The notes: generated by a model from the letters alone, not told the origin. A DNA stretch of 64,000 nt from Alphaproteobacteria bacterium (GCA_045632645.1 JAZQXC010000003.1:2033-66032); one strand, 5' to 3'. Shown: positions 3,825 through 64,000, numbered from the stretch's first letter. Numbers and translations: made by a program.

Positions 3825-5810
3825 ATGGTTGATACGCTTAAAGAAGATAAGACCGCAGGTAGCAGTGAAACAAAGAAGAGAGTTCGTCGTAATGTATACG
3901 TGAGGATAGAAAATGGGCATGTTTATCGTGATGTATATGCTGAAAGAATGAATAGAGGCTCAGCAAGATCCCCTGAAATTATGGTAGATTATCAAATTGA
4001 TACGTTAAGTAATAATAGTGGATATGGTGAATATGCTGGATATTATACTCCTAGTAGAAATAGTATTACGATTAATCATGTTGAAGGTGATGAAGATTTT
4101 AATGAACATAGTCAAAGTAATGGGGTGTTGATACATGAACAAAAACACAGAGATAATCAGAATGCTGGTATGTTCGCATATGCGGTATCTGTTGAACAGG
4201 CTTATAAGCTTTGTATGCATGATGAAATTTCTGCTAATATGGCTGAATTAATTTATTTGCGTGATGAATATTTAAAAACTAAAGATTTATCGGTTTTTGA
4301 TTATGATGGGGGATGTTTTAGTTTTTATGTGGATGCGATTAAGAATGGAGAAATAGATCCTTTTAGTGATTCTAAAGAAGATTTTGATAAAGAAATGGCT
4401 CTGATTGTTAATGGAACTCGTGATATGTGGGTTAGAACATATGCTGAATGGTATAGTAGTATTCATGTTAATACTGGAATGTATTATGGTGAAGAAGATG
4501 GTAAACATGCTGAATTTTATGATGAAAACTATGATAGAGCTATGAAAATTGCATATAATATCGGTGGGGTAGATTTTACTCAATATATAGATATATTTGG
4601 AGATGTAAAGGTTCCTTTTACTTCAGTAGATGAAGTTTTAACAGGTGATAGATTAATAGAGGAGATGTCTTTACCTAAATATGATGGTAGTATGAGTTTG
4701 CTTCAATATCAAAAACTTTTGCAACATGCGGATGTTACACCTTTTATGTCTTTCTTGCGTGATCCGATTGTTATTGATGAAAATAAAACAAAAAATGATT
4801 TGGATAATTTGGAGGCAAAAGATGTTGATAGCATACTAGGAGCTGATGATAGAAAAAGTTATATGTATGATAGGGGATTTTATGATGATCAAATGAAAAA
4901 CAGTGAAATGCATTATGATTTTATTGATAAAATAATTATTGATATTGCAAAAGATTATGAGAGAAGAGGGGAAAAACTACCCAAAGATAATGATGAGGCG
5001 TATAATGAAGCAGTTGATAAATTATATAATATAACACTTAGTTTAGATCCAGAATATAAATATACGAGAATAATAAACATAAGAGAAGTATTAAACCCTA
5101 ATGATGAAGTGCCGATGACAGAATTACCTAAAGAAGCGCAAGAAATTCAAGAAAAATTAGAAAATACAGCGTATCGTGTTATGATGAAGTTTAATCCTAA
5201 AAATAATGTTAAGAGCGATGAGAATAATCCTGTAAGGCCTGTAAAAGAGGATAATACACCAGAGTATCGTGAGTGGAGTGAAAGTAGCAGAGTTTCTGAT
5301 GTGCGATATGCTGAATTATTAAATTTAACAGCAGATGTTATTGAGAAACCATTGGATAAACCTGATGAGCTTAGCGGTAGAGTTAGTTTGGGTGATGAAG
5401 AAAATATCAATGGTTGCCCAGATGAAATTAGTGGAAGAAGGCCTAGAGAAAATGGTGTGCCTAGAATACAGAGAGATGTTTTTGATACACCTCGGGTGAC
5501 ACCACGAGGTATTCAAGTTGAAGACGAACGCAGATATAATGAATTTGTAACAGGGGGAGAAACATCAATAATTGATAGAGAAGCCCTAAGAGAAGATATG
5601 CAAACTACAGCGAGAGAAAAGGATAAAAGGATTAAGGTTGTTGAAGGAATGGATCGAGTTAGCGCATCTAATAATAAATCATCTGTTTTGCCTCAAGGGA
5701 ATGATGATGCAAGTAAGACATCTAGTGATGCAGTTGGATATTTGTGTAATAATGATGAGAAAAAAACAAGTGAAGTTGATTCTGCTGTATTATGTGGAAG
5801 AGATAGGTAG
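3825..5810 (+). CDS. large hypothetical protein with an HExxH motif (possible zincin-like metallopeptidase) and a charged, low-complexity C-terminus
   Basis: 661 aa. VLIHEQKHRDNQ (HExxH) near residue 120. The C-terminal ~200 aa is rich in R/E/D/P. No signal peptide. The initiation context GGAGGGATTACTATGG is shared with the upstream gene. Confidence 0.6.
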   Translation: MVDTLKEDKTAGSSETKKRVRRNVYVRIENGHVYRDVYAERMNRGSARSPEIMVDYQIDTLSNNSGYGEYAGYYTPSRNSITINHVEGDEDFNEHSQSNGVLIHEQKHRDNQNAGMFAYAVSVEQAYKLCMHDEISANMAELIYLRDEYLKTKDLSVFDYDGGCFSFYVDAIKNGEIDPFSDSKEDFDKEMALIVNGTRDMWVRTYAEWYSSIHVNTGMYYGEEDGKHAEFYDENYDRAMKIAYNIGGVDFTQYIDIFGDVKVPFTSVDEVLTGDRLIEEMSLPKYDGSMSLLQYQKLLQHADVTPFMSFLRDPIVIDENKTKNDLDNLEAKDVDSILGADDRKSYMYDRGFYDDQMKNSEMHYDFIDKIIIDIAKDYERRGEKLPKDNDEAYNEAVDKLYNITLSLDPEYKYTRIINIREVLNPNDEVPMTELPKEAQEIQEKLENTAYRVMMKFNPKNNVKSDENNPVRPVKEDNTPEYREWSESSRVSDVRYAELLNLTADVIEKPLDKPDELSGRVSLGDEENINGCPDEISGRRPRENGVPRIQRDVFDTPRVTPRGIQVEDERRYNEFVTGGETSIIDREALREDMQTTAREKDKRIKVVEGMDRVSASNNKSSVLPQGNDDASKTSSDAVGYLCNNDEKKTSEVDSAVLCGRDR

Positions 5811-5910: not shown

Positions 5911-5986
5911 TGGTGCCGATTACGTGACTCGAACACGTGACCTGCCCATTACGAATGGGATGCTCTACCAGCTGAGCTAAATCGGC
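5911..5986 (-). tRNA. tRNA-Thr (anticodon CGU), CCA encoded
   Basis: Reverse complement gives GCCGATTTAGCTCAGCTGGTAGAGCATCCCATTCGTAATGGGCAGGTCACGTGTTCGAGTCACGTAATCGGCACCA. It has a 7-bp acceptor stem, GTTCGAGTC T-arm and anticodon loop TTCGTAA. Confidence 0.9.
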
Positions 5987-42662: not shown

Positions 42663-42712
42663 AAAGTATTGACAAGTGTGACACAGTTGATTTATAGTTA
42701 TGTCATAATGGT
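42663..42712 (+). promoter_or_regulatory. phage-type promoter/operator unit, copy 1 (TTGACA-N18-TATAGT overlapped by the imperfect palindrome TGACACA...TATGTCA)
   Basis: ~50 bp nearly identical to 56682-56731 (about 3 mismatches by eye). Confidence 0.55.
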
Positions 42713-42742: not shown

Positions 42743-42766
42743 GGGCGTCTATAGGGCGCCTTTTTT
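42743..42766 (+). terminator. leader terminator 1a (GGGCG...CGCC plus T6)
   Basis: Short GC stem and T-run ~45 nt downstream of the promoter. Confidence 0.4.
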
Positions 42767-42792
42767 GTTTTTAAATTCTATTTTGTAATTTT

Positions 42793-42817
42793 GGGTAAAC
42801 ATTGTTTGCCCTTTTTT
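42793..42817 (+). terminator. leader terminator 1b (GGGTAAA/TTTGCCC plus T6)
   Basis: 7-bp stem (one G-U) with T-run, 22 nt before the ATG at 42839. Confidence 0.5.
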
Positions 42818-42838: not shown

Positions 42839-43885
42839 ATGAGTATTAAACCAGCAAAAATCCAATTTAATGGTGGGGAAATTAGCCCATGGTTAGATGC
42901 GAGGTATGATATTGCAAAATTTGATAAGAGTGCAAAATTGTGTCGTAATTTTATACCACTTATTGAAGGGAGTATTAAAAGAAGAGGGGGCTCTAGATTT
43001 GTGGCTAGATGCTTAAATGATGATGGGGTTACATTTAGTATTAATCCTTATCCAAGCGAAGCTGAAGTTATTATTGATGGGGAAAAAAGAAATAATATAA
43101 AAGTGGCTAGAGGGGAGTATGTTAGCTTTGAACTTAAGATGGTGGGATATGCACCGTATAGTGGGAAAATATTAGTTAATGATGATTTATGTATTGATGT
43201 AAAACTTGTTTCTAATAGTGAAAAAAGGATATTGAAAATTATTTCTAATCCTATTGATGCAATTATTAAAATTGATGGGTATGAACGAAATGAGGGGGAA
43301 TTTGCGAAAAATTCTGAAGTTTTTTATATTGTGTATAAAGATGGGTATATTATGAAGTCTGGTAATGTGATACTTAGCGAGGATATGGAGCTTTATATTG
43401 AATTAGAAAAAGACGAGGAAGTTGTTGGAGGGGAGAGTGTTTTTGGTGACTGGGGAAGACCTGTTGGATTGATTAGTTGTAGTGCTGTTGGATATATTGA
43501 AAAGCAATATAAATGTTTTTTATTAAGATTCGAAAATGGTTATTTGCCGGTAATATTTAATGCCAATGAAAATGTTCCAAATAAAATTGATGAAACTCTT
43601 TTTTGTTATGAAAATGTTGATGGATATGATGCTGTTGTTTATAAAGGTGGCAAGTATGTTTTGTGTTATATGGAACAGGGAAGCGAAGCTTTGTATTATA
43701 AATTGCTTGATGGGACACTGATTTATGCTGTTGATTTTTTAACTCAAAAAGCTGTTGGTTGGCAAGTGAATGATGATGGAAAATATGCATCATATTATGC
43801 CAATTATGATGGGCATGTTTCTGGTAATGCTGTTAAGGTTTATTATAAAGGTAATTTGATTTGGGAATTGAAGGGGAGAAATTAA
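42839..43885 (+). CDS. phage-region hypothetical protein (beta-rich; possible tail or receptor-binding component)
   Basis: AAGGAG RBS. 348 aa. First gene after promoter/terminator unit 1. Confidence 0.5.
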   Translation: MSIKPAKIQFNGGEISPWLDARYDIAKFDKSAKLCRNFIPLIEGSIKRRGGSRFVARCLNDDGVTFSINPYPSEAEVIIDGEKRNNIKVARGEYVSFELKMVGYAPYSGKILVNDDLCIDVKLVSNSEKRILKIISNPIDAIIKIDGYERNEGEFAKNSEVFYIVYKDGYIMKSGNVILSEDMELYIELEKDEEVVGGESVFGDWGRPVGLISCSAVGYIEKQYKCFLLRFENGYLPVIFNANENVPNKIDETLFCYENVDGYDAVVYKGGKYVLCYMEQGSEALYYKLLDGTLIYAVDFLTQKAVGWQVNDDGKYASYYANYDGHVSGNAVKVYYKGNLIWELKGRN

Positions 43886-43886
43886 T

Positions 43887-46037
43887 ATGGGAAATGTGAG
43901 AAGTTTTTTAGTGCCATTTAAGTATAGTCATAAAGTGGCTTATGTTGTAGAATTTAGTCATTTGAAAATAAGGTTGTTTGCAAAAAATAAACTTGTGAAA
44001 CTTGATGGAAAAGATTTTTCAGGAAATGTTGAAGAGCTTTCTGGTGAAAATGTGGATTTGCATGCATTAAATGATGATGCTTTGGTTATTGATAGTCCAT
44101 ATAGCTATGATGATTTGTGGGATGAAGAAGATAAGTGTATGGGAATTCAGACTATTCAACACTCTGATGTGCTTTATATTTTTAATGAAAATCATCCGAT
44201 AATGATGTTAAAAAGATATTCTAATATTGATTGGAGATTAGAAGAACTTGAAATTAAAAATGGTCCGTTTATGGCGATGAATACTTCGGATATTTTAATA
44301 TCTTCTGATGGGGTTTGTGGTAATGTTAAACTTAGTGCTGATGGAGATGTTTTTAAGGATAGTGATGTTGGACGTTTGATTAGGCTTAGAAATTTTGATG
44401 ATGATACTAAAGGATGGGTTGCTGGTTATGAGTATAAAATTGACGAGTTATGCTTATCTGACAATAAGTATTATAAAGCACTTAATGGTGCAATTAGTGG
44501 AAGCCAAAAACCTGTTCATAGTATTGGGGTGAAATCTGATGGAGGTGTTAGGTGGAGATTTATTCACGATGGAATGGGGATTATTAAAATAAAAAAAATT
44601 ATTGATGCGCGAAATGTTGAAGGAGAAGTTTTATCTAGGCTTCCTGATACGATTTTAAATGGAACGTTATATTGGGAATTAGGAGTTTTGCACAATGGTA
44701 TTAAGCACCCAAAATCGGGTGCTTTTTTTAGGAACAGATTTTGCTTTTTAGTAAATACTGATACAGGGCCTAATGTTTGTATGTCTTGTGTTGGTGATTA
44801 TAATAATTTTGCTGATTTAGATGTTGGAGAAGCAACAGCAGAAACGGCTATAACTGTTCCTGTTTTGAATACGGAATTTAATGAAGGAAAATGGTTATAT
44901 GCTGGAAGTTCGCTGTTTGTTGGAACTGGTGCTTCTGAGTTTTATATTGATGTGATGTCAACGTCTTCAGGACTTTCTTCTGATAATGTGAAAATAGTGC
45001 AAATTTCTAATGTTGGAAGTAAGGGAGTTATGCCTGTTAATGTTGGAAGTAATGTGTTTTTTGTTGATAGATATGGGCTATCTATTAGAGATTTATCGTA
45101 CGATTATTATAGTGAAGGATATAAAGAGATTGATATTTCTATATTGGGAAAACATTTATTTTCATCTAGAATTATTGGAATTAGTTTTCAGGAAACACCT
45201 GATAAGATTTTATGGTGTTTGATGGCTGATGGAATGTTGGTTGCGATGACGTTTTCTCAAGAACAAGAAGTTGTGGCTTTTTCTAGACATGATTTTAGTG
45301 GAGATGTTGAAAGTATGGCTATTGTTCCTAATTTTGAAGATTGTTGTGATGAAATGTGGGTTGTTGTTAGTAGAACTATTAATTCTGCTAAATTTAGAAG
45401 TGTTGAAAAAATAGAGCAAGGAATGCCGTTTACTTATCCTTTAAGTGTTTTAAAAGAAAATAATTTGGCTAAAAAGGAGGATATTAAAAAAGAATATATC
45501 AAAAATCAGGCAATATATTTGGATGGATTTGTGTTGTTTGAAAGAGGTGAGCTTGATGAGTGCGAAGAAGTTTCCGGTTTAGAGCATTTGGAAGGAAAAA
45601 AAATCAAAGTTTTTGCTGATGGAAGTGTTGAAGATGATCAATTTGTAATTGGTGGAAAAATAACTATTAGTAAAAATTGGGTTAGGGTTTTGATTGGTTT
45701 ACCAATAGTTAGCCAATTTATTCCACAGCTTAATTTTATTGAAAATCAAATGGGGAGTGGCTTAGGGCAACGTCAGAGAATAAATCATGTTTTGCTTATG
45801 CTTTATATGTCTGGTGGAGGCAAAATTGGGCCTTATGAAAATAATTTACATGAAATTTGTTATCGCTTGAGTGATGACGAAATGAATGTTTCTAAAGAGC
45901 TTTTTTCGGGTAAAAAAGAAATTTTATTTAATGGGGCAACAAGTGTTAATGAAACTGGAGCGATGTTGATGATTGAAAATGATAGCCCAATGCCGATGAA
46001 TATTTTGGCAATTGTTCCGTTTTTAGATGTTAATTAA
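43887..46037 (+). CDS. large phage structural-like protein (716 aa; tail hub/nozzle or fibre-like)
   Basis: Translationally coupled to the upstream gene. Size and beta-rich composition only. Confidence 0.5.
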   Translation: MGNVRSFLVPFKYSHKVAYVVEFSHLKIRLFAKNKLVKLDGKDFSGNVEELSGENVDLHALNDDALVIDSPYSYDDLWDEEDKCMGIQTIQHSDVLYIFNENHPIMMLKRYSNIDWRLEELEIKNGPFMAMNTSDILISSDGVCGNVKLSADGDVFKDSDVGRLIRLRNFDDDTKGWVAGYEYKIDELCLSDNKYYKALNGAISGSQKPVHSIGVKSDGGVRWRFIHDGMGIIKIKKIIDARNVEGEVLSRLPDTILNGTLYWELGVLHNGIKHPKSGAFFRNRFCFLVNTDTGPNVCMSCVGDYNNFADLDVGEATAETAITVPVLNTEFNEGKWLYAGSSLFVGTGASEFYIDVMSTSSGLSSDNVKIVQISNVGSKGVMPVNVGSNVFFVDRYGLSIRDLSYDYYSEGYKEIDISILGKHLFSSRIIGISFQETPDKILWCLMADGMLVAMTFSQEQEVVAFSRHDFSGDVESMAIVPNFEDCCDEMWVVVSRTINSAKFRSVEKIEQGMPFTYPLSVLKENNLAKKEDIKKEYIKNQAIYLDGFVLFERGELDECEEVSGLEHLEGKKIKVFADGSVEDDQFVIGGKITISKNWVRVLIGLPIVSQFIPQLNFIENQMGSGLGQRQRINHVLLMLYMSGGGKIGPYENNLHEICYRLSDDEMNVSKELFSGKKEILFNGATSVNETGAMLMIENDSPMPMNILAIVPFLDVN

Positions 46038-48963: not shown

Positions 48964-48982
48964 AAGGCGCTTTTAGCGCCTT
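48964..48982 (+). terminator. hairpin (AAGGCGC/GCGCCTT) after the fibre gene; weak T-tract
   Basis: 7-bp perfect stem. Confidence 0.35.
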
Positions 48983-48987
48983 ATTTT

Positions 48988-50691: not shown

Positions 50692-50712
50692 TTTGTTATT
50701 TAATTTTATTTA

Positions 50713-50735
50713 AGAGAGCTTGGCTCTTTTTTTTT
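50713..50735 (+). terminator. hairpin plus T9
   Basis: AGAGC/GCTCT plus TTTTTTTTT. Confidence 0.45.
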
Positions 50736-50756
50736 GTTTATTTTATGGAGGTATTT

Positions 50757-54081: not shown

Positions 54082-56217
54082 ATGAATAAATTAACTAATT
54101 TAGCAGAGATGGTTGGAATTTCATCTTCTTATATTGATAAAACAGGTAAAAAGCATGATACACCTGATGATGTACGCAGATTTTTTTTAGAGGCTATGGG
54201 GATAAAAGCGAAGAATGATAATGAAATAGAAGCTGAAATAAAAAGAGTTTTAGAGCCTTTGTTAATTGAAGAAGTGCTTGCGTTTTATGAAGATGAAGAA
54301 ATTTTAATCAAAATTAAGGCAAATGGAGTCTTTAAGGTTATTTTGAGTAATGAAGATGGAGAGCTTGTTGAAGAATTAAAGGTTAATGGCAATGAGGATT
54401 TTTCTTTTAGGGTATCTGAGTTCGGTTATTATAATCTAAAAGTTGAAGAAGAAGGTGGTGATAAAAAGGCTGAAAGTTTTATAATTTATGCACCAAAGTA
54501 TTGTTATTTGCCTCAATTTATAAAAAATAAAGAACATATTTTTGGTGTGTCTTTGATGATGTATGCACTGAAGTCTGAAAATAGTATTGGTATTGGGGAT
54601 TTTGGTGATTTGGAGGAAATTGTTAAGTTAACTGCTAAAAATGGTGGTGATGTTGTTGGGCTTAGTCCTTTGGGAGCGATGAGTCCTTATACTCTTCCTA
54701 AATCTATACTTAATATGTTTAAGGGTGATGTTTCTCCGTATAGAACGCTAAGTAGGTTATTTATAAACTATGCATATATTAGTTTGAAAGATGTTGAGGA
54801 TTATAAAAACTCTGCTGATGTTTTGAGTTTTATGAATGATGAAGGAGTTAAAAATGAAATTAGGCGCTTAAATGAAAGCGATAAAGTGCTTTATACTCCT
54901 GTATTAATGTTAAAGCTTAAAATTCTTACAATGATGTATAAGGAATTTATTAAAAACGGAAGTATTGAGAGAAAAAATGAGTTTTTAAGATATAAAGATG
55001 AAAAAGGGGAAGAATTATATAATCTTTGTTTGTTTGAAGCATTATTAGAGCGAAATAGAGGAGTTCCTTTTTGGCGTTTTTGGATGGATGGGACTGATGA
55101 TATAAATTCTTTGGTTACAAGAAAATTTGCTGATGAGAATAAAGAACGTATTGATGTTTTTGCTTATTGTCATTGGCTTGCTGATTTGCAACTTAAAAAA
55201 TTGCAGAATTTAGCGATTGAACTTGGAATGAAAGTTGGACTTTATACGGATATGCCGATTGGAGCTGCGTCTAATGGAGCTGAAGTTTGGGAAAATACTG
55301 AAGCATATGTTTTAGATGCTGGAATTGGTGCGCCGGCTGACCCAATGAGACCAAGGGGACAAAGCTGGGGATTTACTCCTTATCATCCTCATGTTTTAAG
55401 AAAGCAAAAGTATGCGCCTTTTATTAAACTTGCTCGTGAAAATATGATAAATTCTGGTGCGTTGAGAATTGACCATGCTATGGGATTGTTAAGATTGTTT
55501 TGGGGATTTTTTGAAGAAGGAAATCCTGTTGTGCAGGGTGCGTATGTGTATTATGATATGAAGGTTTTAACTGCGATTTTGGCTGTTGAAAGTAATAGAG
55601 CTAAATGTTTAATTATTGGAGAAGATTTGGGTACGGTGCCGGAAGGATTTAGAGAATATATGGCAGAACATGGACTTTTATCTTATAAAGTATTCTTTAG
55701 GCAAAAAGAAAAAGATGGTAGTTTTATTAAACCTTGTAACTATGATTATATGTCTTTGGCACAATCTTCTACTCATGACCAAGCAACAAGTGTTGGTTTT
55801 TGGTGCAATGAAGATATTGAAGTGTTTAAAAAGTGTGGTTTGTATGTTAATGATGAACAATATGTATCTAATTTGCAAGGACGCCAAAAAGATAGAGTTA
55901 ATATGATTAAAGCCTTTGATGAACTTGGTATTGTTGATGAAAAATTAAAAGGTGAAATGATTGATAGTGCTGAAAAAGGTGATGATGTGCCTGATGGGAT
56001 TGAGCGTGTGGTTAATGTGTTTGGAGCTAAAACTAATAGCGCATTGTATTTGGTTAGGTTGTGTGATATATTTGCGCAAAAGGTTTTGGATAATGCTCCA
56101 GGAACTATTGATGAATATACTAACTGGCGTGTTAAACTTGGTTGTGATATTGAGATGATTAAAAAATCAGATTGTTTTGAGAATGTTATGAATGATATTA
56201 AAAAATATCGTTCTTAA
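54082..56217 (+). CDS. malQ: 4-alpha-glucanotransferase (amylomaltase, GH77)
   Basis: GIGDFGDL, LRIDHAMGL and GEDLGTVP signature motifs. Start at ATG 54082 behind AAGGAG. Confidence 0.85.
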   Translation: MNKLTNLAEMVGISSSYIDKTGKKHDTPDDVRRFFLEAMGIKAKNDNEIEAEIKRVLEPLLIEEVLAFYEDEEILIKIKANGVFKVILSNEDGELVEELKVNGNEDFSFRVSEFGYYNLKVEEEGGDKKAESFIIYAPKYCYLPQFIKNKEHIFGVSLMMYALKSENSIGIGDFGDLEEIVKLTAKNGGDVVGLSPLGAMSPYTLPKSILNMFKGDVSPYRTLSRLFINYAYISLKDVEDYKNSADVLSFMNDEGVKNEIRRLNESDKVLYTPVLMLKLKILTMMYKEFIKNGSIERKNEFLRYKDEKGEELYNLCLFEALLERNRGVPFWRFWMDGTDDINSLVTRKFADENKERIDVFAYCHWLADLQLKKLQNLAIELGMKVGLYTDMPIGAASNGAEVWENTEAYVLDAGIGAPADPMRPRGQSWGFTPYHPHVLRKQKYAPFIKLARENMINSGALRIDHAMGLLRLFWGFFEEGNPVVQGAYVYYDMKVLTAILAVESNRAKCLIIGEDLGTVPEGFREYMAEHGLLSYKVFFRQKEKDGSFIKPCNYDYMSLAQSSTHDQATSVGFWCNEDIEVFKKCGLYVNDEQYVSNLQGRQKDRVNMIKAFDELGIVDEKLKGEMIDSAEKGDDVPDGIERVVNVFGAKTNSALYLVRLCDIFAQKVLDNAPGTIDEYTNWRVKLGCDIEMIKKSDCFENVMNDIKKYRS

Positions 56218-56248
56218 TAAGTCTTATAAATAATGTTGTAAAATTGAA

Positions 56249-56273
56249 GGAGTGCTTTGGCGCTCCTTTTTTT
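56249..56273 (+). terminator. conserved hairpin motif, copy 1 (GGAGTGC-TTTG-GCGCTCC plus T7)
   Basis: One of three related hairpins (see findings). Confidence 0.55.
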
Positions 56274-56301
56274 GTTGTAATTTTTTTATTGGAGAAAAGA
56301 T

Positions 56302-56640
56302 ATGTTTTTAAAAAAGGCAAAAAGAGAACTACAATTAGTTAAAGCTTTTCAGGAGTTATTTTTAGATGATAAAAAGGAGCTTAAAGATGCGGGAAAGATT
56401 GTTATTTCTTTTTTGAGAGATGAGGTTGGGGGACGTGGTGAATTGGGGAAGAATGGAGTTCCTTATTTTTATGATAGTAATAATAGTTTTGATGTGGGAG
56501 CTGCGGGATTTTTGCTTGGTAAAAGAAGAGTGTTTGATTTGATTATTAAATATTTATCACTTGATGAAAGAGAAATATTTAAGCTTATTAGCGTTAGTAA
56601 AAAACGTGATGAGAATTTTGATGATGAAATTAATGTTTAG
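56302..56640 (+). CDS. hypothetical protein (112 aa) in the phage region
   Basis: GGAG RBS. No domain recognised. Confidence 0.45.
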   Translation: MFLKKAKRELQLVKAFQELFLDDKKELKDAGKIVISFLRDEVGGRGELGKNGVPYFYDSNNSFDVGAAGFLLGKRRVFDLIIKYLSLDEREIFKLISVSKKRDENFDDEINV

Positions 56641-56681
56641 TTTATTTGGAATTAAAAAAATAAAAATAGATTGATTAAAAA

Positions 56682-56731
56682 GTATTGACAAGTGTGACAT
56701 AGTTGGTTTATAGTTATGTCAGAATGGTAGA
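56682..56731 (+). promoter_or_regulatory. phage-type promoter/operator unit, copy 2 (TTGACA-N18-TATAGT with perfect 7-bp palindrome TGACATA...TATGTCA)
   Basis: Near-identical to 42663-42712. Confidence 0.55.
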
Positions 56732-56735
56732 AGAG

Positions 56736-56758
56736 GCATCGATTTGATGTCTTTTTTT
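56736..56758 (+). terminator. leader terminator 2a (CATC/GATG plus T7)
   Basis: Short stem and T-run. Confidence 0.35.
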
Positions 56759-56765
56759 GTTTTTA

Positions 56766-56789
56766 GGCGCTGAAATAGCGCTTTTTTTT
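56766..56789 (+). terminator. leader terminator 2b (GGCGCT/AGCGCT plus T8)
   Basis: 6-bp GC-rich stem plus TTTTTTTT. Confidence 0.6.
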
Positions 56790-56803
56790 ATATTTAATTT
56801 TGA

Positions 56804-56828
56804 GGATTGCTTTGGCAGTCCTTTTTTT
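56804..56828 (+). terminator. conserved hairpin motif, copy 2 (GGATTGC-TTTG-GCAGTCC plus T7)
   Basis: Covaries with copy 1. Lies inside the TTG-initiated ORF extension, which is therefore rejected. Confidence 0.55.
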
Positions 56829-56859
56829 ATTTGTGTTTAACATTTTTTGTGAGGAAAAT

Positions 56860-57585
56860 ATGAGAAAATTTAATAAGCCGGAGGGGCAGACTACCTCCGA
56901 TAACTTTCTTAAGTCTGAAATTGAAAAAGACTTTTTGCGCGCACAATCTGGTTGGGGTGAGGTGAGCGATGATGATCTTTCGTATATCAGTAATAAGGGT
57001 TTTAAATCTCCTTCTGATTTACTTAAATCTTATCGTGAGTTAGAGCGAGTTTATTCGTCTAAAGTCAGCATTCCTCGGGACGGCGATAAAGAGGGCTTTA
57101 GTAAACTTTATTCTAGGCTTGGTATGCCTAAAGATTTGGACGGATTTAATATTGAATTTCAAGATGAAGATAAAGAACTTGGAAGTCAATTTACGAAAGT
57201 ATGTCTTGAAAATAATATTCTGCCTCAGTCTGCAAAAGCTCTTTATGAATGGTTTGTTAAATCTAGAGAAGATGCAGAAAATGTGATGAATCAAGATTGG
57301 GAAAATCAATCTTTTTTACAGATGAAGGAAGTGGAAGAAAGTTGGGGCGCTAAGGCTAAACAAAACATCGAATTAATGAAAAGAGGTATTAGACTTGTTT
57401 CTGATGATGAAGATGTAATTGAAAATATGGAAAGAGCCTTGGGTACTAAGCAAATGATGGAAACATTTTGTAAGCTTGGAGAAGCCGTTTCTGAAGATAA
57501 TCCGGTTAGTTTTGGAAAAAGAGGGAGGACTGATGATGATTGGTCTGCGGTGGAATATTTTAGAGAAATGTTTAATGATTATTAA
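56860..57585 (+). CDS. putative scaffolding protein (acidic, helical)
   Basis: Position between portal and coat. 241 aa, acidic, helix-rich. Start at the ATG behind GAGG. Confidence 0.4.
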   Translation: MRKFNKPEGQTTSDNFLKSEIEKDFLRAQSGWGEVSDDDLSYISNKGFKSPSDLLKSYRELERVYSSKVSIPRDGDKEGFSKLYSRLGMPKDLDGFNIEFQDEDKELGSQFTKVCLENNILPQSAKALYEWFVKSREDAENVMNQDWENQSFLQMKEVEESWGAKAKQNIELMKRGIRLVSDDEDVIENMERALGTKQMMETFCKLGEAVSEDNPVSFGKRGRTDDDWSAVEYFREMFNDY

Positions 57586-57609
57586 TTTTTAATTTGAAAG
57601 GAAAAAATA

Positions 57610-58509
57610 ATGGCTAGTACATTAAAAGAAATTGCGGTATCGCTCTCTAAGAAACAGGAGCATTATGTTGATAGTTTAACTGAAGAATCTCCAATTTTAG
57701 ATAATATGCGTTTTGAACCTTCTACCCATGGTTTATGGAATGCATATGAAGAAGTTGCTAGAATTGAAGGTGCTGGTTTTGTTGATATTAATCAACCATT
57801 GCCTGAAATGGAAGTTGATTCTAATTTGAAAAAAATTGATTTATCTATTTTGGGTGGTGAAATTTTCTTGCCGGAGGATAAAGGCTCTGTTATTGGTGTT
57901 AGTGAATATTTTGGTAAGAAAGTGCCTGTGCTTTTGAAACATGCAGGTCAAACAGCTGAAAAGAAAATAATTTATGATAACTTTATCCCTTATGCTGTAA
58001 ATAATGGTAAGGCGCAAAATTCTGGTGCTGAAGAAAATTGTTATTCTATGGTGGCTGTTAGATTTATTGATGGAGAAGTAACAGGTTTATATTCTCAAAG
58101 CAATATTAATCGTTTTGGACTTTTAGATTCTAGACCTATTAATGGTGGTGCACTTTATAAAAATCATGATGGTGTGCTTGGATATGGTTTGAGACTTAAA
58201 GGCTATATTGGTATGCAACTTGCTAACAAAGATGCTGTTTCTGCTATTGTTAATATTAACCAAAACAATATTCCAACAGCTGACCAAATCGATAATATGC
58301 TTGTTGATGCAAAAGCAACTCCTGGTTCTACATTTATTTTCTGTCATCCTAAAGTGTTGTCTATGCTTAATCAATATAAAGGTAATATTTTACAAGCATC
58401 TTCATATGATTTTGATGTTAATAGAAGCTTTATGGCATGGAATGGCATTCGCTTTATTACATCTTATAACTTTAAAAATGGTACGGAAGAAGCTGTTAAA
58501 TTAGCGTAA
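57610..58509 (+). CDS. putative major capsid protein
   Basis: 299 aa immediately after the scaffold-like gene. P22-like gene order. Confidence 0.45.
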   Translation: MASTLKEIAVSLSKKQEHYVDSLTEESPILDNMRFEPSTHGLWNAYEEVARIEGAGFVDINQPLPEMEVDSNLKKIDLSILGGEIFLPEDKGSVIGVSEYFGKKVPVLLKHAGQTAEKKIIYDNFIPYAVNNGKAQNSGAEENCYSMVAVRFIDGEVTGLYSQSNINRFGLLDSRPINGGALYKNHDGVLGYGLRLKGYIGMQLANKDAVSAIVNINQNNIPTADQIDNMLVDAKATPGSTFIFCHPKVLSMLNQYKGNILQASSYDFDVNRSFMAWNGIRFITSYNFKNGTEEAVKLA

Positions 58510-58531
58510 TTTATTGATAGGAGTGAAAGTA

Positions 58532-58906
58532 ATGTTGAAAAATATATTAAAAGTATATGGCGAAGATTTAGTTAATGGTGATTTGGCTTTATCTTCTATT
58601 GAAGGAGGAAAACCTGTTTGCGCAGGTGGAACATGTGGTGCATTATGTGTTAATGTTTTTGCTAAAGGTGATGTGGTGTTGGCAGAAGATGTTAACGTTA
58701 GTGTTAAACATGGTGATACTATTGATGGTGGTTTTGCTGAATTGTTTGCTATCAACCTTGAAGGAGGGGCTCAATATAAAGATGGTGACTTAATGGCGAC
58801 TACTACTATTTCTGAAACAGCAAAGGCTTATTTGGTTGCTGATGTTGTTAGTAATGAAGCTAATAGTGGTGGTGTTCGAGTTACTCTTGGATATTTAGCT
58901 AGATAG
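58532..58906 (+). CDS. phage-region hypothetical protein (Gly-rich, 124 aa)
   Basis: Start at the ATG behind AGGAG. The track ORF uses an upstream TTG. Confidence 0.4.
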   Translation: MLKNILKVYGEDLVNGDLALSSIEGGKPVCAGGTCGALCVNVFAKGDVVLAEDVNVSVKHGDTIDGGFAELFAINLEGGAQYKDGDLMATTTISETAKAYLVADVVSNEANSGGVRVTLGYLAR

Positions 58907-58931
58907 TTTTTATTATTATTTTTAAGTTAAA

Positions 58932-58976
58932 GAGCAAAGAAAGAATGAGAAGAAAGTTCTTTCTTTGTTCTTTTTT
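58932..58976 (+). terminator. strong terminator (14-bp stem GAGCAAAGAAAGAA/TTCTTTCTTTGTTC plus T6)
   Basis: Read directly. Confidence 0.65.
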
Positions 58977-59003
58977 GTTGAAATTTAAAATAAGAAGTGT
59001 AAT

Positions 59004-59210
59004 ATGAATAAAAGAGTGTTGAGTACTGTTGAAAGTATATACAGCAAATCAAATGCTAAAAATCCAATAAAAACAGGAAATCATTTAGTTGATTATGTTA
59101 TAGGAAAAAATAAATATGCTAAAGCATGGAATGTTGGATTTGAAGTTGGAAAAGCAGTATTTGTAGCTCTGCAATCGTTTAATGAATTAAAACGTAATAA
59201 AAAATATTAG
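59004..59210 (+). CDS. small hypothetical protein (68 aa)
   Basis: ORF only. Confidence 0.3.
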   Translation: MNKRVLSTVESIYSKSNAKNPIKTGNHLVDYVIGKNKYAKAWNVGFEVGKAVFVALQSFNELKRNKKY

Positions 59211-59233
59211 TACAATATTGAAAGGAGCTAATA

Positions 59234-59653
59234 ATGAAGGGGTGGAAAAATTATTTTATAATTTGGGGAGGATTGGTTGTTAGCTCTTTTTTGTTTGGTC
59301 TTTGTTGTAGTCATCAAGATATGATATTTATCAATGCGATACTATTGGGGATGGCTATTGGATTGAGTGTTATTAATGCATTAGGTAATTATGATGTTTA
59401 TATAGATGATTTTAAGGAAAAATATAAAAATACGGCATTGTTTTTGGAAAGAATAGGGAAGGTTGATAGTTTGGTTAGTATTTTTGTGTTGCCGGTTATT
59501 GTTATTGCGTTTATGGAAAGTATGGGATGGAGCGATGTTAAGGTAAATAATGAATATCTTATATGTGTTGCTGTTTTGATGTGTAGTTTATGGTGTTTGT
59601 GTTTGGTTTTAGGAATATGGCAATTTTATATAAATAATAAATTAAAGAAATAA
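59234..59653 (+). CDS. small membrane protein (3-4 TM) in the phage region
   Basis: GGAG RBS. Hydrophobic segments. Confidence 0.4.
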   Translation: MKGWKNYFIIWGGLVVSSFLFGLCCSHQDMIFINAILLGMAIGLSVINALGNYDVYIDDFKEKYKNTALFLERIGKVDSLVSIFVLPVIVIAFMESMGWSDVKVNNEYLICVAVLMCSLWCLCLVLGIWQFYINNKLKK

Positions 59654-59778
59654 TTACAATATCGGAGATGAAAATGAAGAAAATTAAAGCTATGTTGAAA
59701 ATTATAGGTAAAGGAATATTAAAGATTTTGGACTTTATTTTATGTTGGGTATAAATGTTTTGTGATTTTGGTTTTAAA

Positions 59779-59804
59779 GGGGAGCTTTGGGCTTCCTTTT
59801 TTTT
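59779..59804 (+). terminator. conserved hairpin motif, copy 3 (GGGAGC-TTTGG-GCTTCC plus T8)
   Basis: Related to 56249 and 56804. Lies inside the TTG-extended ORF, rejected as coding. Confidence 0.5.
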
Positions 59805-60648: not shown

Positions 60649-60675
60649 AGAGGAGTTTTAGCTCCTCTTTTTTTA
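60649..60675 (+). terminator. terminator (AGAGGAG/CTCCTCT plus T8)
   Basis: 7-bp perfect stem. Confidence 0.55.
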
Positions 60676-63237: not shown

Positions 63238-64000
63238 ATGAATGATCTTGAGTTAGATGATGAGGTAAATGTGGTAAATGAATTGAGCGGTGATGGTGAC
63301 CGCTCTTTTTTGTTGGATAAAAAAGATGATAAAAATTTGATAGATGATGATTTAATAGCAAGTAATGAGTTAGCGAAAAATGAAGTTGAAACTTTTATTC
63401 AAAAAGAGGAGGAAAATGGAAATATACCAAGTGAAAATTTGAACAAGATAAATATTAGATATATTGATACAGAGCATAATCTTGAACTTAAAAATATAAA
63501 TAATGAAAGCGTTGATGAGGATAAGCCTTTTATGTCTTTTAATAAAATGGCTGAGGTGATTAGAGATGGTTTTGAGCATAATAATTATACTAAAGAAATA
63601 GAAAAAATTGGTGAAGATGTTGCGCGCTATAAATGGGCTTATGATGAAGGAAAGTTTGGGGATTTTGATGGAGGAGCTTTTACTAAAGAGGTTTTTAAGG
63701 CAGGTGCTAGAGGTTTTGGTAGTGCTAATCTTTTTATGATTAGCGATATGTTAAAAATGCTTGGTAGTAATGTTAAAAATAAAAATTTGAATTTGGGTGC
63801 TGTAACTCATGGTGTTAGTTTGGTTTTGCCTCATGCTGGTGATACACTAAATGATTTGGGCGAAGTGATAGAGAATTTAGCGTATAAAATTGAAGATTCG
63901 TCTTTTTTACGTCCAGGTGAGGCGGTTTTTGATGAAGATCCAAACTGGATGAATTTAGCAAATATTATAGGGCAGGGTGCAGGTAATGTTTTGAGTATGG
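63238..64000 (+). CDS. hypothetical phage protein, 5' portion (runs off the right edge)
   Basis: ATG at 63238. Open through 64000 (>250 codons). Acidic N-terminus. Confidence 0.4.
   Translation, partial: MNDLELDDEVNVVNELSGDGDRSFLLDKKDDKNLIDDDLIASNELAKNEVETFIQKEEENGNIPSENLNKINIRYIDTEHNLELKNINNESVDEDKPFMSFNKMAEVIRDGFEHNNYTKEIEKIGEDVARYKWAYDEGKFGDFDGGAFTKEVFKAGARGFGSANLFMISDMLKMLGSNVKNKNLNLGAVTHGVSLVLPHAGDTLNDLGEVIENLAYKIEDSSFLRPGEAVFDEDPNWMNLANIIGQGAGNVLSM

Follow-up and report, generated by a model that had tools for sequence, protein, structure and literature searches.

Do three similar hairpins within one stretch of phage DNA represent a dedicated RNA element recognised through a shared loop, or are they ordinary transcription terminators? 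This question is raised by a window of 64,000 nucleotides (nt) from Alphaproteobacteria bacterium (GCA_045632645.1 JAZQXC010000003.1:2033-66032), in which an original prediction, made from the sequence alone, had noticed three copies of a hairpin with the loop CTTTGG, hereafter copies 1, 2 and 3, each shortly upstream of a phage gene (g112, g241 and g196, respectively). The window holds part of a temperate podovirus-like prophage with a T7-type structural module, located in a low-GC gut alphaproteobacterium. From the analyses below, we consider with good confidence that the three hairpins are Rho-independent terminators punctuating the late structural-gene region of this prophage, copies 1 and 2 being likely a duplicated cassette. 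The coordinates of all features are given in Table 1.

The presence of the three hairpins is clear, as the sequence, the folds and a consensus terminator scan, which flagged all three, agree at each position. With their A/U extensions, the stems are perfect helices of 9-11 pairs, 4-5 of them G-C, with loops of 3-5 nt and directly abutting runs of seven, seven and eight T in copies 1, 2 and 3; the computed folds reach -15.7, -12.9 and -12.3 kcal/mol (z-scores -4.8, -3.9 and -2.3), respectively. All three therefore display the features of an intrinsic terminator, namely a stable hairpin (stem of at least 5 base pairs (bp) and loop of 3-8 nt), an abutting U-tract, and an intergenic location behind the stop codon of a gene on the same strand, as the prediction of a family of intrinsic terminators implied. 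Copy 1 follows the stop codon (56217) of a GH77 cargo gene, copy 2 follows that of g112 (56640) and is the third in a stack of three terminators, and copy 3 comes after the stop codon of g139 (59653) and a further small open reading frame (ORF), read by eye, and has the capsid block, variable genes included, upstream of it and g196, the gp11-like tail gene, downstream. In the 44-64 kb region, the terminator scan returned 16 terminator-like sites versus 6.4 ± 3.0 in shuffled sequence, while a promoter scan found no promoter-like site between any of the three hairpins and the next ATG. The alignments of g241 and g196 with their orthologues begin at the ATG (query residue 1) and the DNA upstream is unrelated between loci; therefore, the TTG-start N-terminal extensions that the ORF track drew over copies 2 and 3 are non-coding, as had been suspected.

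What is conserved at these positions was addressed by comparison with related prophage loci of gut Alphaproteobacteria (up to 30 loci, designated by L numbers). Their layout is constant: g112, a variable region (40 bp to 3.6 kb), the g241-g299-g130 block, a second variable region (0.1 to 2 kb), and g196. In nearly every case, a hairpin with a T-run behind it lies in the 110 nt preceding the g241 and g196 orthologues, at 18-42 nt from the ATG, and the hairpin sequences are almost wholly different between loci, with about 16 different ones at the g196 site. In a strict scan, which accepted only perfect stems and terminator-like hairpins ending at most 90 nt upstream of the gene, g196 was preceded by a hairpin in 18 of its 22 loci, and g241 in 13 of its 23. 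The control genes g299, g130 and g187, which are tightly coupled, gave 2/26, 2/25 and 0/13; in several further loci of the L006 group, imperfect hairpins were seen there by eye. An unbiased fold test, comparing fixed 60-nt windows with shuffles, gave median z-scores of -3.1 (g241) and -3.3 (g196), and of -0.2, -0.9 and -0.5 for the same three controls. Position and structure are thus kept while the sequence turns over, indicating that the former, and not the latter, are under selection, and the claim of a selected RNA structure stands at the g241 and g196 sites.

The loop does not follow the same rule. At the copy 1 site, the window and L028 share TTTG, whereas L030 has GGGAGT-ATTTTTA-GCTCCC. 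At the copy 2 site, TTTG is found in the window and L030, and GAAAT, GAAAA and GAATA in L028, L001 and L002, respectively. At the copy 3 site, the window has TTTGG, L030 TTTTG, L001 TTTTGGG, L002 TTTTAGG, and L004 and L010 have GC-TTT-GC apices. The exact GCTTTGG followed by a T-run is absent from the orthologous sites of the 27 related loci searched. (A MAFFT alignment of the copy 3 orthologues placed the 3' arms out of register and was not used for a formal pair count.) The CUUUGG loop is therefore, from these comparisons, without a specific role and not a special RNA motif, and the fixed loop on which the original prediction relied does not persist among orthologues.

This bears directly on the idea that the hairpins are a dedicated protein-binding RNA, that is, a nut/boxB-like antitermination element or a processing site whose CUUUGG loop is recognised. 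The apex string GCTTTGG is indeed identical in the three copies, the c-TTTG-g apex is rare among the hairpins surveyed (see below), and the phage probably needs some antitermination. Nevertheless, the loop already differs in the closest relatives, including the L028 locus where the stems of copy 2 are the same, distant relatives carry unrelated hairpins at the same positions, and no Rfam match was obtained. Furthermore, the pairing register of copy 3 is shifted by one base relative to copies 1 and 2, so that CTTTGG is common to the three as a linear string, not as a structurally equivalent loop. Such a function is thus very improbable, and a loop-specific protein-binding element appears essentially excluded by the orthologue comparison, with no sign left of the binding, antiterminator or processing role that had been envisaged.

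The search for further members led to the same conclusion. A covariance model built from the three copies and run over the window with filters off scored them at 47-51 bits, as expected by construction; the next-best matches in the window reached at most 25 bits and were generic terminators, some in host DNA (21873 and 32281) and some in the phage (60644 and 50708). In 30 loci, high scores were confined to the orthologous sites of the closest relatives and decayed to the generic level beyond them. The model gave no new members, and a dispersed RNA family was rejected. Rfam at the gathering threshold returned only tRNA and nothing at the hairpins, and an E-value scan of 56150-56950 gave only sub-threshold matches, located in the regions of the terminator hairpins, the best of them scoring 26 bits where 56 were required. 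There is neither a dispersed family nor a known RNA class here.

How, then, did the three copies come to look alike? The pattern GCTTTGGN5CCTTTTT, allowing one mismatch, occurs three times versus 0.07 expected, although it was picked post hoc. A survey of the window and the related loci collected 236 terminator-like hairpins, giving 1180 within-genome pairs. A c-TTTG-g apex was found in five of the hairpins, four of which are copies 1 and 2 and their orthologues, the fifth being unrelated (L022). With 11 of 14 arm bases and the loop in common, copies 1 and 2 rank seventh among the pairs; the six higher-ranking pairs derive from duplicated segments in L015, L020, L023 and L003, with flanking identity shown for four of them (Table 1). 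Moreover, copies 1 and 2 have in common a stretch of about 35 nt that includes the 5' flank AATTnTGA, unneeded for termination. From these sequence similarities, they are probably diverged paralogues of a cassette composed of a terminator, a U-tract, an AU-rich leader and a Shine-Dalgarno (SD) sequence, duplications of this kind being seen again in other phages of the family, whereas copy 3 is a weaker relative whose likeness may be partly coincidental. The likeness beyond chance that had been claimed for all three thus holds for copies 1 and 2, but is weaker for the shifted copy 3. The compensatory stem changes reported between copies 1 and 2 fared similarly: one position shows a two-sided change (G-C versus U-G), but the other is one-sided only (U-G versus U-A).

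Alternatively, the three could be independent terminators, with a coincidental likeness imposed by the constraints of an AT-rich, purine-skewed genome, in which the 5' arm would be rich in G, the 3' arm rich in C and running into the T-run, and the loop rich in T. Stems of the GGAG...CTCC type with T-rich loops are common among the terminators of the window (e.g., 50712, 53138 and 60649), the GC skew is about +0.4, and copy 3 not only uses another register but has orthologues that trace back to GGAAGC-TTT(T)G-GCTTCC, unrelated to the GAAAW-loop ancestor of copy 2. However, the common stretch of copies 1 and 2, their rank below duplicated-segment pairs only, and the absence of their apex 8-mer GCTTTGGC from otherwise independent hairpins argue in the other direction. 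Pure coincidence is therefore plausible for copy 3 and unlikely for copies 1 and 2, and as an account of all three hairpins it is unlikely. Other repeats are visible in the same variable intergenic region upstream of g241: L012 carries four tandem copies of TACTCTGACATTTTTT(T) at about 5140-5215, and direct repeats, each about 100 nt long, occur in L003, L009 and L015.

A different function could also be considered, in which the hairpins serve mainly as mRNA stabilisers or processing sites, like T7 RNase III sites or the 5' hairpin in the leader of T7 gene 10, and the U-run with the AU-rich leader acts as a translational enhancer for the next gene. Each hairpin stands immediately upstream of an SD sequence and an ATG with an AU-rich leader, the leader has 18-27% GC even in relatives at 53-56% GC, the structural module is T7-like, and the TTAAC motif of the leader resembles the 'epsilon' enhancer of T7 gene 10 (UUAACUUUA). 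RNase III substrates are, however, duplexes of about 20 bp, usually with an internal loop, and the perfect 9-11 bp stems found here are well below this size and unlike a T7-type RNase III site. In addition, the conservation of a GC-rich stem abutting T6-8 despite sequence turnover is a signature of termination, and stacked units behind a consensus promoter make sense as terminators and not as stabilisers. We thus regard this function as quite improbable. As an observation on the leader itself, a TTAAC(T)T(T)AA motif is present 10-25 nt before the SD sequence upstream of g241 in the window (56829-56859) and in L001-L025.

Returning to the hairpins as terminators, their surroundings include a promoter module that is present twice in the window. 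Its two copies, A and B, follow the same 37-nt pattern (35 specified bases and two N) and differ only at the N positions; a second copy would not be expected by chance in the window. The duplication comprises the promoter and 13 nt beyond it. In copy B, TTGACA-N18-TATAGT matches 11 of the 12 consensus positions of a sigma-70-type promoter, and five nt after the -10 lies a -10-like element, whose consensus over both module copies is CA(T/G)AATGG. Upstream of g241 in 12 related loci, TTGACA-N17/18-TATAGT or TATGAT-N5-CATAATGG is found despite differing spacers, always followed by a hairpin and a T-run. By its position, CATAATGG is a candidate sigma-dependent pause element. The conserved ATG within it was also considered as the start of a leader peptide, which is unlikely, as the ORFs that follow vary from locus to locus, both in length and in sequence. 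A scan of IMG/VR for the module gave four unrelated, chance-like matches, without following terminators or shared proteins. Behind copy B, the terminators T1 and T2 and hairpin copy 2 (starting at 56729, 56765 and 56802) precede the late genes.

These observations can be assembled into a mechanism, modelled on known phages. In the nascent RNA, a GC-rich stem of 9-11 bp followed by U7-8 would release the host RNA polymerase. Copy 1 would thereby end the GH77 cargo transcript, copy 2 would complete a stack of three terminators downstream of a strong sigma-70-type promoter, and copy 3 would set the capsid block and the variable genes apart from the tail genes. As the stretches between the hairpins and the next start codons are too short to contain a promoter, the downstream late genes need read-through; as in lambda pR'/Q/tR', this could be achieved by processive antitermination that loads at the duplicated promoter module. 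In the lysogenic state, the late genes would be silent, shielded by the terminators from the module promoter and from transcription of the cargo gene; during lytic growth, a processive antiterminator would override them, and copy 3 could set the ratio of capsid to tail expression. The analogy suggests that the late genes are under antitermination control. A wider proposal, which we hold only tentatively and consider somewhat improbable, is that the hairpins are part of an undescribed late-control system (a duplicated promoter with the CATAATGG sigma-pause-like element, two or three stacked terminators, additional terminators ahead of most late genes and a putative processive antiterminator) in an uncharacterised gut-alphaproteobacterial podovirus lineage, in which units of terminator, leader and SD sequence double as boundaries for the exchange of cargo such as the GH77 gene.

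Several points weigh against these interpretations. Instead of a pause element, CATAATGG could represent the site where transcription starts, a leaderless AUG or the beginning of a small RNA, and the stacked terminators may simply be leaky. No Q-family antiterminator gene or binding element was seen in the part of the prophage present in the window, the early region being outside it. The paralogy of copy 3 is weak because of its shifted pairing register. Finally, the copy 2 loop is TTTG in the window (56811-56814) and GAAAT in L028 (at about 815-819), with identical stems and 100% identical capsids, a difference confined to the loop. An inversion of the loop was rejected as the source of TTTG from GAAAT, as the reverse complement, ATTTC, gives no match; short-patch copying from copy 1, with which TGCTTTGGC is common, is possible from the sequences. 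As a route to the rest of the prophage, homologues of the N-terminus of the last ORF in the window were sought and none were found, and the only related viral contig starts at the terminase.

The units of terminator, leader and SD sequence could additionally act as recombination boundaries for cargo exchange, as do the PeSL motifs described in T4-like phages (PMC4122927, PMC2839356). Copies 2 and 3 lie at the right-hand borders of the two regions that vary most, an insertion of about 250 nt with a small ORF ends exactly at copy 2 in L028, and cassettes of 75-110 nt are duplicated in L020, L023, L003 and L015. On the other hand, each genome has only two or three copies, which have only short sequences in common (about 35 nt in the window), and variable regions beside terminators are expected anyway for moron-type insertions. 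This added function therefore seems rather unlikely. The L028 insertion itself (at about 600-800, versus 56792-56803 in the window) separates T2 from copy 2, has TTTTGAGGA and TTTTAGGA at its borders, and is a moron-type indel adjacent to the hairpin.

Table 1. Features of the prophage region, with positions in the window unless a related locus (L number) is named.
Feature	Position (strand)	Details
Copy 1, intrinsic terminator	hairpin and T-run 56246-56273 (+)	stem 56246-56269 including A/T extension; core GGAGTGC-TTTG-GCGCTCC 56249-56266; T7 56267-56273; g112 ATG 56302, 28 nt downstream
Copy 2, intrinsic terminator	hairpin and T-run 56802-56828 (+)	core GGATTGC-TTTG-GCAGTCC 56804-56821; T7 56822-56828; g241 ATG 56860, 31 nt downstream
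Copy 3, intrinsic terminator	hairpin and T-run 59776-59804 (+)	core, in its own register, GGGAGC-TTTGG-GCTTCC 59780-59796; T8 59797-59804; g196 ATG 59826, 21 nt downstream
AU-rich leader ATTTGTGTTTAACATTTTTTGTGAGGAAAAT	56829-56859 (+)	copy 2 to g241 ATG; holds TTAAC motif and SD GAGGA
Late-promoter module copy A	42669-42711 (+)	CATAATGG at 42704-42711
Late-promoter module copy B	56685-56727 (+)	-35 TTGACA 56685-56690; 18-nt spacer; -10 TATAGT 56709-56714
Copy B -10-like element CAGAATGG	56720-56727 (+)	5 nt after -10 (TATGT-CAGAATGG)
T1, first hairpin and T-run after promoter	56729-56760 (+)	GAAGAGGCATCG-ATT-TGATGTCTTTTTT
T2, second stacked terminator	56765-56791 (+)	AGGCGCTG-AAA-TAGCGCTT, T8
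Two stacked terminators	42743-42817 (+)	42743-42761 and 42793-42811, each with T-run; between module copy A and tail gene ATG 42839
Terminator-like hairpin	48965-48987 (+)	just before TerS ATG 48988
Terminator	50712-50737 (+)	AAGAGAGC-TTG-GCTCTTTT and T-run; TerL stop to portal ATG 50745
Terminator	60649-60675 (+)	AGAGGAGT-TTTA-GCTCCTCT, T7; before g141 start
Head-fibre and nozzle-type tail genes	42839-46037	
Small terminase subunit (TerS)	48988	ATG
Large terminase subunit (TerL)	49393	
T7-type portal	50745	PF12236
ORF, 549 amino acids	52434-54083 (-)	
GH77 4-alpha-glucanotransferase	54172-56217	
g112	56302	
g241, scaffold-like	56860	phrog_3742
g299, major capsid protein	57610	
g196, T7 gp11-like	59826	phrog_394
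Internal-virion-like protein	60993	
Duplicated segment, L020	2533 and 5160	75 nt, terminator, leader and SD
Duplicated segment, L023	3566 and 5160	75 nt, terminator, leader and SD
Duplicated segment, L015	2572 and 3316	110 nt, promoter and first terminator
Duplicated hairpin, L003	2728 and 3630	
Related pair, L003	1244 and 5177	shares 3' arm and leader; ranks below the copy 1/copy 2 pair

Regarding the prophage itself, its gene order is tail/nozzle, TerS, TerL, portal, cargo, g112, the scaffold-like g241, the capsid gene g299, the gp11-like g196 and internal virion proteins. The prophage extends well to the left of 56.3 kb, with tail, terminase and portal genes present from 42839 on, so that the context is larger than had been assumed; the genes left of about 39-42 kb are chromosomal. 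The capsid assignment of g299 was made via homologues of about 55% identity that match PF20911 (GP7) at 41.5 bits. The GH77 gene and the minus-strand ORF sit, as metabolic cargo, between the portal and the scaffold/capsid genes, and L030, whose capsid is 95% identical, has the same arrangement and the same gene order, GH77 included. Therefore, the GH77 gene ('malQ') is phage cargo and copy 1 its terminator. The notion that copy 1 is a conserved terminator of a host malQ was accordingly rejected, the terminator differing in L001, L002 and L030. GH77 is also present in L001 and L002, followed there by extra cargo genes.

The hosts of these elements are low-GC 'Alphaproteobacteria bacterium' metagenome-assembled genomes from animal guts, and the capsid is found at 73-89% identity in 23 species-level genomes. 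Among GenBank phages (50,697 records), there was no DNA match and no protein match to g112 or the capsid; only the gp11-like protein matched, in BcepC6B-like and Liberibacter phages. Further features of the window deserve mention. Two neighbouring ORFs (42839-46037) divide the tail/nozzle profile phrog_376 between them, profile positions 2-64 being fused to a head-fibre domain (42839-43885) and positions 63-710 located in 43887-46037. Just before copy 3, a small ORF of about 28 codons (MKMKKIKAMLKIIGKGILKILDFILCWV, 59674-59762), whose C-terminal part is partly conserved in L001, L002 and L030, may encode a small membrane peptide. A hairpin followed by six T (GAGCGGT-GATGGTG-ACCGCTC-TTTTTT, 63285-63311) lies inside the ORF starting at 63238, and is either an internal attenuator or a chance match. 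The positive GC skew extends on the + strand over nearly all 64 kb, which have 32% GC and most genes on that strand. A tRNA-Thr(CGU) gene is encoded on the minus strand at 5911-5986.

For the annotation of this lineage, our results fix the true start codons of g241 and g196, and mark transcription-unit boundaries in prophages that have no relative among the GenBank phage records mentioned above. They also illustrate that an apparently conserved loop and a covarying stem in three intragenomic copies can stem from terminator constraints and local duplication. Beyond annotation, the importance of the hairpins is small, as they are an ordinary feature of phage late operons. The duplicated module of promoter, CATAATGG and stacked terminators is a more useful lead, giving a testable entry to late-gene antitermination in the little-studied phages of gut Alphaproteobacteria; apart from this module and the uncharacterised phage lineage, nothing here merits further pursuit.

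Compared with known systems, the three hairpins share with intrinsic terminators in general the GC-rich stem, the abutting U7-8, the intergenic site on the coding strand and the maintenance of structure as the sequence turns over, and differ from them in no essential respect, although they are unusually near the next start codon (21-31 nt) and several are stacked. In phage T7, the terminator T-phi lies between genes 10 and 11, and copy 3 similarly stands between the capsid block and a gp11-like gene. The arrangement also resembles the leader of T7 gene 10, in that a hairpin is followed by AU-rich sequence containing a UUAAC motif and then by an SD sequence. In contrast to the hairpins described here, the 5' hairpin of T7 gene 10 is not a terminator, and the promoters of the prophage are of the host sigma-70 type and not of the phage RNA polymerase type.

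The closest parallel in layout is with the late region of lambda, since a strong promoter followed by terminators ahead of the late genes is present here as well. The lambda terminator is at +194, whereas the first terminator here is only about 10-45 nt from the predicted start; two or three terminators are stacked, there are two module copies (one per late-gene block), and the host is an alphaproteobacterium. At lambda pR', a -10-like AACGAT at +1 to +6, followed by GGG, pauses the sigma-70 holoenzyme for the loading of Q (PMC4005639), and Q, which is reported to load at this sigma-dependent pause, then carries the polymerase past the terminators located before the late genes (PMC6606751; bioRxiv 10.1101/651190). 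The likeness to pR'-tR' thus consists of a consensus promoter, a -10-like hexamer with GG near the expected start, and terminators both before the late genes and within the late operon.

The boxB/nut or put elements resemble these hairpins in being small hairpins near a phage promoter in a probably antiterminated system, but the loop is not conserved here, and the U-tracts make the hairpins targets of antitermination and not loading sites. Finally, the PeSL of T4-like phages are composite promoter/terminator stem-loop motifs repeated at the borders of variable cassettes (PMC2839356, PMC4122927), and the present hairpins are similar in that they, too, are short stem-loop motifs that recur in one genome and flank variable gene cassettes. 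Unlike PeSL, copies 1 and 3 have no promoter in or next to them, only the region of copy 2 having one, about 100 nt upstream, and far fewer copies are present.

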